From positions 1 through 5,407 of the IMG/VR virus record IMGVR_UViG_2703718851_000002: a stretch of DNA of 5,407 nucleotides; one strand, 5' to 3'. A program made the position numbers and the translations under genes. Below, in pieces: positions 420 through 1,532 of this stretch. Under the pieces are notes generated by a model, which did not search any database, was not told where the DNA came from, and worked only from the letters and a program-made list of their open reading frames with translations. How positions within the stretch are numbered: the stretch's first letter is position 1; each line of letters starts with the position of its first letter. Source of the DNA: a virus. Its lineage: Duplodnaviria; Heunggongvirae; Uroviricota; Caudoviricetes.

Positions 420-935
420 TTATACGGCTTTTTTTACATCTTGTGGTTCTTGTGAAGGAGCTACAAAACCTTCCTGTTCATGAATACCATACTCTGACAA
501 AATCTCTTTGCGCGCATCTGCTGGTAAAGTTTCTAGCATTTGGGCTAGTTGTATGCACTCACGCGATACGCCGTGCAGAGATTGGATTTGAGTCTGATCA
601 AAGATACTTGGCATTAGTGCTCCAAGTCCGCCTTTACTAAGTAGCTTTAATGCCCTCTGGATTTCCTCTGGTTCTAACTCTGCGACCAAAGCCATTAACA
701 CAGAAGCTAACTTATAAGCTGGCTTATCGCTATCTAATAACTGCGCCCCTCCTAATTCTGCCTGAGTGGCATCAGGTAATGAGCTGATATGGTATTCATA
801 AGCAACTCCCTTTACTCCTTTGATCTGTCTCTTTTTCCATCCCTCATTAGTTGCTTTGCGGCTAATACTACTTGCTGAAGACGGAAGACCAGCAACCCCT
901 TGTAGCTCTTTAGCTGAAAACCATTCTTGTGTCAT
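420..935 (-). CDS. c: Mu-family lysogenic repressor c (D108-like variant; N-terminal winged-helix DNA-binding domain)
   Basis: Supplied ORF 420..938(-). C-terminal half (..[37 protein letters not shown]) closely resembles Mu Repc as recalled; N-terminal part diverges, consistent with a heteroimmune relative. Track start at 938 is GTG only 3 nt after a GAGG Shine-Dalgarno; ATG at 935 (MTQEWFSAK..) is the likelier start. Confidence 0.9.
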
Positions 936-938
936 CAC

Positions 939-1134
939 AAACCTCGCTTTAAATACACTGTGTATTCAAAGAAACAAAAATATATTCATTTTAAAATCAT
1001 CAAGATAGATGAAATTCAAACGAAATATTTGAATACATCATTGCATTGACAATGTATTCACACTAACATTGCTGCATACCTTGTCAGCTACCTTGCGGCG
1101 TAGCTGATGGCGTAGCTTGTGAGGATTGCATTTT
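939..1134. promoter_or_regulatory. c-ner divergent control region (expected early/repressor promoters, operators, IHF site, transposition enhancer)
   Basis: AT-rich 196-bp interval between divergent c and ner start codons. In Mu this interval carries Pe, Pc, operators O1-O3 and the IHF site, and the operators double as the transposition enhancer. Individual sites not mapped here. Confidence 0.55.
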
Positions 1135-1353
1135 ATGGCGATAAAGAAAAGTAAATGTGAAGACAAAAGCAGATACGACATTGTTGCTGATCTGCGCAAA
1201 AGAGGAAAAAGCCTAGCAGCTCTTGGTCGTGAGAACGGTCTCTCTATCTCTACGGTAAAAAATGCCTTGGATAAACCTTACCCTCGGGGTGAAAGAATTA
1301 TTGCCGATGCATTGGGAGTTGAGCCACGAGACCTCTGGCCTTCGAGGTATTGA
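1135..1353 (+). CDS. ner: Ner-family DNA-binding regulator (negative regulator of early transcription)
   Basis: Supplied ORF 1126..1353(+). Resembles Mu Ner (..ADL.KRG.SL.AL.R..G....T..NAL....P.GE.IIA.AL...P...WPSRY) and sits in the canonical position after c. Track start at 1126 is TTG with no spacing from the GAGGA at 1121..1125; ATG at 1135 (MAIKKSK..) has good spacing. Confidence 0.85.
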
Positions 1354-1355
1354 AA

Positions 1356-1532
1356 ATGCAACCACAATGTAATGATTGGTTTTCTGCAAAGAAATTAGAA
1401 GGGCTGATAGGTCTTCCAAAATCCTCTAGCGCGATCTCTCGTAAAGCAAGGTTAGAACAGTGGGTGTTTCGACAGATACACGGGGTAAATCCGTTTAACT
1501 ACAGCTCCATCCTTAAACATCCACTTTCCTGA
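1356..1532 (+). pseudogene. Transposase A 5' fragment (about 43 authentic codons, then out-of-frame read-through of antisense U' sequence)
   Basis: [41 protein letters not shown] matches the winged-helix N-terminus that MuA shares with the repressor (compare [35 protein letters not shown] in the c ORF here). The remaining residues are encoded by the opposite strand of U'. ner stop TGA 1351..1353 and the A ATG at 1356 are 2 nt apart, preceded by GAGG at 1345..1348. Track start at 1350 is TTG. Confidence 0.8.

Follow-up and report, generated by a model that had tools for sequence, protein, structure and literature searches.

Paralogous repressor and transposase DNA-binding modules in a remnant Mu-type prophage of Escherichia coli N61 and their co-variation with candidate operator words

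It has been known for forty years that the repressor and the transposase of Mu-type phages share a DNA-binding module, so that the repressor stops transcription and transpososome assembly alike. The homology of the Mu repressor (Rep) to the transposase (A) was reported by Harshey et al. in 1985 and the resemblance between the N-termini of D108 Rep and A in 1986, both as related in PMC3820752. D108 (GQ357916; Mizuuchi, Weisberg & Mizuuchi 1986, cited in PMC3820752) is the classic case of a Mu backbone carrying a heterologous cassette, which comprises the 5' part of c, operators, ner, and the N-terminus of A. In Mu, the enhancer and operators O1-O3 overlap, and the MuA-binding sites form two clusters around an IHF site (PMC3145075); MuA subdomain Iα binds this enhancer (PMC3362531). 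Engineered mini-Mu (LER) units carry the left end, the enhancer, and the right end in cis (PMC3145075).

The stretch of DNA analyzed here (the window; 5,407 nucleotides) contains a 4,916-bp deletion derivative of a Mu-type prophage inside yjiT of E. coli N61. The element is flanked by a 5-bp target-site duplication, GGGAA, at 77..81 (read directly from the sequence) and 4998..5002 (read from the sequence and by comparison with the empty site). Joining 1..81 to 5003..5407 gives back an unbroken yjiT that matches at 100% identity as one piece, and this joined empty-site query was covered over at least 80% in 236 E. coli genomes. The Mu-type left end, attL (82..260, + strand), begins at base 82, the counterpart of base 1 in Mu-type phage records, and contains the transposase end-binding sites L1 (97..108), L2 (202..213), and L3 (242..253), all three exact matches to RAARYRCGAAAR. 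The right end, attR (4931..4997), contains R3 (4931..4942, +), R2 (4949..4960, −), and R1 (4971..4982, −), and position 4997 is the end of the element. These features establish the insertion anatomy: like a Muvirus, the element has both Mu ends, each with three A-binding sites, and the 5-bp duplication. It does not have the complete Muvirus genome with A, B, and the head and tail genes, as the deletion took out A from codon 45 on and everything up to a point within the tail-fibre assembly gene, and approximately 32 kb of the parental prophage is absent.

The deletion joint was placed at 1486..1488, a 3-bp overlap (TAA) between A and the tail-fibre assembly gene, because the match to A of phage PhiR68_1 ends at 1488 and matches to the tail region begin at 1486. 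The truncated tail-fibre assembly gene (1485..1802, − strand; RefSeq pseudogene; PF02413) keeps 106 of 177 residues, with 74% identity over 106 aa to PhiR68_1 U. Like mini-Mu (LER), the N61 element holds both ends and the enhancer in cis without A or B, and it could therefore be moved only with transposase supplied in trans; it is incapable of transposing by itself. Unlike mini-Mu, it stems from a natural deletion and retains c, ner, gin, com, mom, and a D108-specific ORF.

The c repressor gene is intact (420..935, − strand; an ORF that is also RefSeq CDS WP_019841371.1) and encodes a protein of 171 aa. As in other Mu-type phages, it is a leftward gene adjoining attL and divergent from ner-A, and its product joins a DNA-binding domain at the N-terminus with a Mu-like C-terminal domain and tail, the last 30 residues being 75 to 91% identical to those of Mu Rep. 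The protein falls in the PHROG transcriptional repressor family phrog_7148 (E = 3.6e-48) and matches PF02316, "Mu DNA-binding domain," with 80.3 bits (gathering cut-off, 23.3); its N-terminus also matches the PHROG transposase family phrog_310 (E = 6e-18). The winged helix-turn-helix at the N-terminus comprises residues 1 to 61 (753..935, −), with the recognition helix H2 at residues 21 to 31 (843..875, −). An AF2 model built from a 12-sequence alignment gave residues 1 to 60 a pLDDT of 81 to 93 and the order β1-H1-H2-β2-wing-β3-H3; a single-sequence AlphaFold model was discarded (pLDDT of 42, with a topology that looked wrong). In Foldseek searches, the best matches of the accepted model were 1tns (TM 0.68) and 1qpm (TM 0.66), the sole matches with a probability of 1.00, so that the predicted structure superposes on MuA Iα (1TNS) and the Mu repressor (1QPM). 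Together with sequence matches of the module to 1tns and to 1g4d, a further Mu repressor structure, this establishes the fold. The adjacent ner gene (1135..1353, + strand; PF13693, 87.9 bits) is likewise intact and encodes 72 aa, with 64% identity to D108 Ner and 46% to Mu Ner.

What remains of A is a stub of the first 44 codons of subdomain Iα (1356..1487, + strand), covering β1, H1, H2, β2, and half of the wing. Its structural boundaries follow those of the Rep model, shifted by +3 residues, which puts the H2 equivalent at 1425..1457 (+). The stub is identical to PhiR68_1 A through residue 44, with DNA identity extending to base 1488, and matches PF02316 with 24.3 bits (cut-off, 23.3) over profile positions 1 to 34 of 134 only. 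Beyond residue 44, the ORF continues as an out-of-context, non-A tail of 14 residues and a stop codon at 1532 (1488..1532, +), which is tail-fibre-assembly sequence read in antisense. The fold is incomplete, as the cut inside the wing removes β3 and H3, and the 44 codons leave none of the Iβγ end-binding domains, DDE core, or domain III of a MuA-family DDE transposase; RefSeq annotates no transposase within the element. The A copy is thus a dead relic. The preliminary description had Rep and transposase competing for the same operator/enhancer DNA. As an account of Mu this is the known arrangement, given the shared site described above, but in the window such competition is impossible with A cut after codon 44 inside the wing, and it would be confined to intact relatives.

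The Rep segment quoted in that description (residues 4 to 38; 822..926, −) and its A counterpart (residues 7 to 41; 1374..1478, +) are both present and align without gaps, with 22 of 35 residues identical. They are paralogous, as had been proposed, although "near-identical" is too strong a term for 63% identity. BLASTP of Rep against the stub returned 25/45 identities (composition-adjusted E = 8e-16), the final columns of this alignment extending beyond the deletion joint into non-A sequence. The Smith-Waterman score was 122, compared to 21 ± 4.4 in 5,000 composition-preserving shuffles (z = 23), none of which reached it. S, K, and A abound in the segments, as would be expected if serine- and lysine-rich low-complexity sequence resembled itself by chance, a reading to which we attach a negligible probability and which is already refuted: the residue entropy of the paired segments is 3.65 to 3.67 bits, so the match is not one of low-complexity residues, and both proteins match the same Pfam family and the same solved structures.

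At the nucleotide level, Rep and A are identical at only 102 of 174 positions. The same codon is used at 15 of 38 identical residues, where codon usage alone predicts 14.2 ± 2.7, and D108 Rep and A behave likewise (17 identical codons; 13.5 ± 2.5 expected). Identical codons at chance level indicate that synonymous sites are saturated, which argues against recent conversion between c and A. Such a gene conversion, or a recent duplication, between the c and A 5' ends in the phage lineage would suit the distance and orientation of the segments (approximately 450 bp apart, inverted) and the fact that Rep of this type is nearest to its own A (0.64, compared to 0.58 to 0.60 for the best other element). 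Nevertheless, it was rejected on the synonymous-site test; we consider it very improbable and largely refuted. The Rep and A N-termini are instead ancient paralogues, each a copy of one winged helix-turn-helix module.

To place the immunity region, it was compared with those of related phages. PhiR68_1 (PV340575.1) is 99.8% identical over 83..1488 (1,406 bases) and 99.7% identical over 2800..4997. PhiR68_1-type elements share Rep, the operators, Ner, and the first 44 A codons with the window but differ in that their genome is complete and their A has its full length (666 aa). As c, the operators, ner, and the A 5' end are nearly identical, the N61 cassette is assigned to this immunity type. 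Against Mu and D108, early-region DNA matched only in part or weakly, the similarity to Mu stopping inside c.

Mu has the same gene order (attL, leftward c, operators/enhancer, ner, A) and the PF02316 fold on both proteins, and from about residue 80 onward, A of the window's type matches Mu and D108 A with 100% identity. However, identity to the Mu module is only 31% for Rep and 44% for A. With D108, the intergenic layout aligns at approximately 70% identity, and this layout contains a Ner-type inverted repeat whose arms are 8 bp apart, whereas module identity is 53% (Rep) and 48% (A), and the central and C-terminal parts of Rep are Mu-like rather than D108-like. The recognition helix reads S.ISRKA here, AGV.Y.A in Mu, and ATNITRKA in D108. 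Rep and A of one phage are also far closer to each other here (63%) than in Mu (38%), with D108 in between (54%). These comparisons establish the cassette boundaries. Since Rep module identity is low and the operator words differ, the cassette is not of the Mu type, and the D108 type appears excluded in the same manner by module identity, helix, and words. It would thus constitute a third, undescribed E. coli immunity type beside Mu and D108. The repressor had been described as heteroimmune-looking; its module identities and the affiliation with PhiR68_1 agree with this, and heteroimmunity to Mu and D108 is to be expected.

The c-ner intergenic region is AT-rich. The Mu operator consensus is CTTTTPyNPu, and a word count that recovers this published consensus in Mu was applied to the window. 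All three exact copies of TGTATTCA in the window lie within 961..1060, and at ≤1 mismatch there are 16 matches compared to 6.3 expected. Candidate operator/enhancer words form two clusters. The first (950..988) contains TGTATTTA (950..957, −), TGTATTCA (961..968, +), and TATATTCA (981..988, +), of which the first two make up a 12-nt palindrome (947..958 / 960..971); D108 carries TGATTTCA at the homologous position. The second (1030..1060) is an inverted pair, TGAATACAT (1030..1038) and ATGTATTCA (1052..1060), 13 nt apart and flanking TTGACA at 1047..1052. The homologous positions hold TCAAATCA and TGATTCCA in D108 and AAATACA and GGTATTCAC in Sodalis element L011; a Sodalis element with a similar helix retains ATACA/GTATTCAC. 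Compared with CTTTTPyNPu in Mu and with TGATTYCA at homologous positions in D108, the candidate word here is TGTATTCA, which differs from that of D108 by a concerted change. Word enrichment and homology with D108 suggest that Rep and A bind these words.

An inverted repeat at 1084..1107 (TCAGCTAC, 8 nt, GTAGCTGA) aligns with GAGCTAC, 8 nt, GTAGCTC in D108. By analogy with D108 Ner footprints, we take it to be the probable Ner operator. Between the two word clusters, no IHF consensus was present at ≤1 mismatch, and an IHF layout like that of D108 or Mu is not established here. A sigma-70 scan of 880..1180 returned one leftward candidate, with no excess over shuffles, and an overlap of promoter and operator is likewise not established.

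To examine whether the DNA-binding module co-varies with its operators, as the preliminary description suggested, Rep, A, and operator words were compared across elements. The homologue search yielded 13 clusters, too few for sequence covariation, and 80 genomic loci were used instead, giving 29 elements, 17 of them in a strict subset. Identity between Rep and its own A averaged 0.515, compared to 0.379 across elements, and none of 20,000 permutations of the 29 elements reached the own-pair value; the strict set showed the same excess. It is concentrated at Rep residues 21 to 26, 37 to 38, and 44 to 45, corresponding to H2 and the wing flanks. In addition, sharing of operator words correlated with identity of contact residues when background identity was controlled (partial Mantel r = 0.38; 0/5,000 permutations). 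Among distant pairs (background identity of <0.5), r was 0.15, and this comparison has no power, as only one pair has similar contact residues.

These data bear on a further alternative, in which the two proteins share a fold without sharing DNA specificity and the repeated words are promoter or architectural elements (AT-rich, IHF, or Ner). Many of the identical positions are indeed invariant in all elements (W8, G16, P21, G43, G46, E50, Y51, and P57), and the base composition of the intergenic region and a promoter scan not above chance are in line with it. However, a common fold alone predicts equal own-pair and cross-element identity, and not an excess at the variable positions of the recognition helix. 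The recovery of the experimentally known Mu consensus and the shared site published for Mu (PMC3145075, PMC3362531) also count against this alternative, which we consider improbable. Gene conversion fares no better, since the excess is localized rather than uniform and Rep is nearest to its own A in only 4 of the 29 elements. Its nearest relative is usually Rep of another element, on which ground repeated independent duplication was rejected as well.

The sequence co-variation is thus established as a pattern, and comparative analysis supports co-variation of Rep, A, and operator, partly confounded with relatedness. When all A modules are ranked, the own A comes first for only 13 of the 29 Reps, and the Mu pair (37 to 38%) shows no greater similarity than Mu A has with other A modules. 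In one Avibacterium genome carrying three elements, contact identity was 0.44 to 0.75 for own pairs and 0.12 to 0.31 for cross-pairs, by which measure these co-resident elements appear mutually orthogonal.

Taken as a whole, the locus is best explained, with high probability, by paralogous Rep and A modules that are kept by selection on the same DNA words, in a cassette that moves as a unit, with A reduced to a relic in the window. In an intact PhiR68_1-type phage, Rep on TGTATTCA-like words in the two c-ner clusters would shut off the early promoter and would also block the enhancer that A Iα needs for transpososome assembly. As one DNA serves both proteins, the contact residues of both copies, which lie in the recognition helix (its first half) and the wing flanks, would change in step with the operator words when a new immunity type arises. 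The cassette (c 5' part, operators, ner, and A Iα) would then move as one block, carried on a Mu backbone that otherwise hardly varies. In N61, the deletion removed A after codon 44 while Rep, Ner, the operators, and both ends survived. Rep may still be expressed in N61, and the element probably still represses its own early promoter and confers immunity against PhiR68_1-type phages, so that the remnant predicts immunity to one phage type.

The locus itself adds modestly to what is known, as a putative third E. coli type with the most similar Rep/A pair of the three. Together with the 29 elements from other genera, it lends sequence-level support to protein-protein-DNA co-evolution and suggests which residues set specificity. 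More tentatively, and with somewhat less than even confidence, Rep/Iα and the operator words may form a portable specificity cassette whose parts co-evolve and whose code can be read (H2 residues 21 to 26 and the wing flanks in the protein, the central bases of the 8-bp word in the DNA). It would have diversified into at least 10 specificity classes across Enterobacterales, Pasteurellaceae, Vibrionaceae, and Aeromonadaceae, and Mu-type elements resident in the same genome would be kept orthogonal. If so, the pairing of S.ISRKA and TGTATTCA would join Mu and D108 as a new data point amenable to experiment. Such cassettes could provide orthogonal repressor/enhancer sets for Mu-based genome engineering.

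The immunity region is single-copy in N61. Among 5,426 E. coli genomes, the cassette was found in 15, and the same cassette is carried, besides phage PhiR68_1, by 14 E. coli prophages.

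The c repressor of the window (Rep; 420..935, minus strand, 171 amino acids) and the remnant of transposase A (A stub; 1356..1487, plus strand) were compared at their N termini. Both peptides quoted in the preliminary description were found, at 822..926 (minus strand) in Rep and 1374..1478 (plus strand) in A, and align without gaps with 22 of 35 identical residues. In a BLASTP comparison of the ORFs, 25/45 positions are identical (E = 8e-16), and the Smith-Waterman score of the segments equals 122, compared to 21 ± 4.4 for shuffles, none of which reached 122 (0/5,000). A low-complexity origin of the match was ruled out by the residue entropy (3.65 to 3.67 bits). 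In addition, both proteins exceed the gathering score of Pfam family PF02316 ("Mu DNA-binding domain"), the Rep N terminus also matches a PHROG transposase family, and the solved structures best matching Rep are Iα, the N-terminal subdomain of MuA transposase (1TNS), and the Mu repressor DNA-binding domain (1G4D/1QPM). A structural model of Rep, built from a 12-sequence alignment (pLDDT of 81 to 93 for residues 1 to 60), contains in order β1 (5-7), H1 (8-11), the recognition helix H2 (21-31), β2 (35-37), the wing, β3 (46-49), and H3 (55-61). Foldseek retrieved 1TNS first with this model (TM score of 0.68), then 1QPM (0.66), with no other match close. The alignment, PF02316, structure, and fold matches thus confirm the likeness, although "near-identical," as it was previously called, is too strong for 63% identity.

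The finding is therefore real, and its interpretation as the Mu arrangement is correct, since Rep/transposase homology has already been published for Mu (Harshey et al. 1985, as cited in PMC3820752) and, by its title, for D108 (Mizuuchi, Weisberg & Mizuuchi 1986, cited in PMC3820752). The enhancer is bound by Iα, a winged helix-turn-helix (PMC3362531), and in the MuR-DNA complex the minor groove holds the wing (Wojciak et al. 2001, as cited in PMC2691836). The Rep/A paralogy in the window is an instance of this forty-year-old principle. Novelty is restricted to three points: a third immunity type of E. coli, previously undescribed, whose Rep and A are particularly similar and which has a candidate operator word, the recognition of A in the window as a deletion relic within a 4.9-kb natural mini-Mu-like remnant, and a broader, sequence-level confirmation that the Rep modules and the Iα modules co-vary at DNA-contact positions.

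The window has a 100% match in the genome of E. coli N61, which was isolated from bovine mastitis (chromosome NZ_AP028880.1, 4064922-4070313). Of 5,426 complete E. coli genomes, this one alone contains the window entirely. A transposable prophage of the Mu type has left a remnant of 4,916 bp at 82..4997. Base 82 corresponds to base 1 in alignments with Mu-type phage genomes, transposase end-binding sites are located at the left end (L1, 97-108; L2, 202-213; L3, 242-253) and the right end (R3, 4931-4942; R2, 4949-4960; R1, 4971-4982), and a 5-bp duplication, GGGAA, flanks the element on both sides (77-81 and 4998-5002). Joining the flanks with a single GGGAA restores an uninterrupted yjiT that finds matches of 100% identity, and the joined flanks are covered for at least 80% in 236 other E. 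coli genomes. RefSeq lists, from the left, c (as a "DNA-binding protein"), ner (as an HTH protein), a pseudogene for tail-fibre assembly (truncated), genes for a tail fibre and an invertase, com, mom, and one hypothetical protein. The element is a natural Mu-type deletion derivative of 4.9 kb. It has neither A nor B but retains both ends (six A-binding sites), the operator/enhancer region, the genes c, ner, gin, com, and mom, and an additional ORF. A helper transposase might in principle be able to mobilise it. The additional ORF (4459..4905, plus strand, 148 amino acids) is located between mom and attR. Its N terminus is hydrophobic and resembles a signal peptide (MKKSKLLISTIISLFVLTASSVNHA), and it has no Pfam match. 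It is labelled "D108-specific protein" in D108 and in PhiR68_1, the closest phage, and its PHROG family is phrog_15648 (function unknown). Mu has no counterpart. This ORF looks like a moron.

Where full-length A of PhiR68_1 reads ...RQIHGVRGVAYEFHISSLP..., A of the window reads ...RQIHGV, followed by 14 other residues and a stop. DNA identity to PhiR68_1 A extends to base 1488 and the tail-gene matches start at base 1486, so the deletion joint is a 3-bp overlap; beyond it, the tail-fibre-assembly gene retains 106 of 177 residues. In register with the Rep model, the A stub stops within the wing, without β3 and H3. As the element has no transposase, Rep has no competitor in the window. The G-segment remnant (1485..2655, minus strand), comprising the truncated assembly gene and the variable tail-fibre part, is not PhiR68_1-like: its assembly protein shares 74% with the PhiR68_1 counterpart at the protein level, and its DNA is 95 to 96% identical to SfMu and other E. 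coli prophages. The parent of the remnant was thus mosaic relative to PhiR68_1.

Escherichia phage PhiR68_1 (PV340575.1) matches the early region (83..1488) at 99.8% identity. In contrast, Mu DNA matches only attL and the c 3' end, and D108 DNA matches part of the region at about 75%. The boundaries of the heterologous block are the classic ones. Rep residues 1 to 60 share 55 to 60% with D108 Rep and 25 to 45% with Mu Rep, whereas residues 81 to 171 are closer to Mu Rep than to D108 Rep (91% over the last 11 residues). Ner shares 64% of its residues with D108 Ner and 46% with Mu Ner. Beyond about residue 80, PhiR68_1-type A does not differ from the A proteins of Mu and D108 (100% identity). 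The PhiR68_1-type cassette occurs in 15 of the 5,426 E. coli genomes, with an intact transposase gene in 14, and the Muvirus A core in 83 genomes. A 96%-identical Rep cluster represents 109 sequences on 844 contigs, Salmonella among them. A literature search returned no paper on the PhiR68_1 immunity type; text matches for "PhiR68" concerned only a different phage, PhiR68.2. Two further loci, from Shigella flexneri SFBU1023 and E. coli ECMA0423 (c at about 2106..2615), combine a Muvirus backbone (A 91% identical) with another distinct Rep/A module, carrying the helix GVHKRA on both proteins, and their top words have TTACCAAA in common with Mu. These look like a fourth enterobacterial immunity type.

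Rep and A of the same phage share a recognition-helix motif, S.ISRKA in the window, ATNITRKA in D108, and AGV.Y.A in Mu, with module identities of 63% (PhiR68_1 type), 54%, and 38%, respectively; the window Rep module is 53% identical to that of D108 Rep and 31% to that of Mu Rep. Among 80 loci with a gene for a MuA relative, taken from assemblies that represent each species by one genome, 33 carry an Iα-like module both on A and on a divergent upstream ORF (29 non-redundant). Under a single ancient duplication without later interaction, all Rep-to-A comparisons pass through the same node, so own pairs should be no closer than cross pairs. Across the 29 elements, identity was 0.515 for own pairs versus 0.379 for cross pairs, the own-pair value being reached in 0/20,000 permutations, and a strict 17-element set left the result unchanged. 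The excess lies at HMM columns 24-26 and 28-29 (within the N-terminal half of H2, at residues 21-23 and 25-26 of Rep) and at columns 40-41 and 47-48 (residues 37-38 and 44-45, flanking the wing). The proposed co-variation thereby gains sequence-level support at DNA-contact positions. Recent gene conversion was rejected as its source, identical residues using the same codon in 15 of 38 cases (14.2 ± 2.7 by chance), as was repeated re-duplication, own A being the overall nearest relative of Rep in only 4 of 29 elements. In Avibacterium paragallinarum NCTC11296, three co-resident Mu-type elements are mutually orthogonal in their contact columns, with identities of 0.44 to 0.75 for own pairs and 0.12 to 0.31 for cross pairs.

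This genome contains at least six MuA-family loci (L067, L069, L071, L072, L078, and L081). At three of them Rep is of the winged-HTH type, and the recognition helices of these three differ from one another; the remaining loci have the Iα module on A with no Iα-like repressor detected upstream, and may therefore use another repressor type. Elsewhere among the fetched loci, two Streptomyces sp. E11-3 scaffolds of 1.5 to 1.6 kb (L008 and L061) carry genes for E. coli-type MuA (99% and 85% identical), most likely contamination and not a Streptomyces Mu. In a Sodalis sp. MAG (L011, 2983..4976), a frameshift after the Iα module splits A (ORFs 2983..3144 and 3087..4976) while Rep is intact, representing another decaying Mu-type element.

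As to the DNA, TGTATTCA occurs without mismatch three times in the window, at 961, 1030 (minus strand), and 1053, always between c and ner (1135..1353, plus strand), with one-mismatch copies at 950 (minus strand) and 981. With at most one mismatch, the whole window has 16 matches versus 6.3 expected. The candidate words form two clusters. The first consists of a palindrome (947-971) and the word at 981; in the second (1030-1060), TGAATACAT and ATGTATTCA form an inverted pair separated by 13 nt. The intergenic region is alignable with that of D108, where the homologous positions read TGATTTCA, TCAAATCA, and TGATTCCA. As a positive control, a blind word count over 29 elements recovered the published Mu operator consensus, CTTTTPyNPu, as CTAAAAAG. 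It also placed ATGTATTC among the top words of a Sodalis element (L011) with a window-like helix, yielded words of the AAATCA type for Pasteurellaceae elements whose helix reads ATN[IV]TR, and found words common within other helix classes; at the homologous pair positions, the Sodalis element carries AAATACA and GGTATTCAC. A partial Mantel test of word sharing against contact-residue identity, controlled for identity at the remaining columns, gave r = 0.38 (0/5,000 permutations reached it); with distant pairs only, r was 0.15, with essentially no power. The evidence from the candidate words is therefore compatible with co-variation, but not independent of relatedness.

Upstream of ner, an inverted repeat of the Ner type, TCAGCTAC, 8 nt, GTAGCTGA, is located at 1084-1107 and probably represents the Ner site; a third GTAGCT copy follows at 1112..1125. 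The aligned place in D108 differs, reading GAGCTAC, 8 nt, GTAGCTC. The Ner protein (64% to D108 Ner) and its probable site seem to have changed together too.
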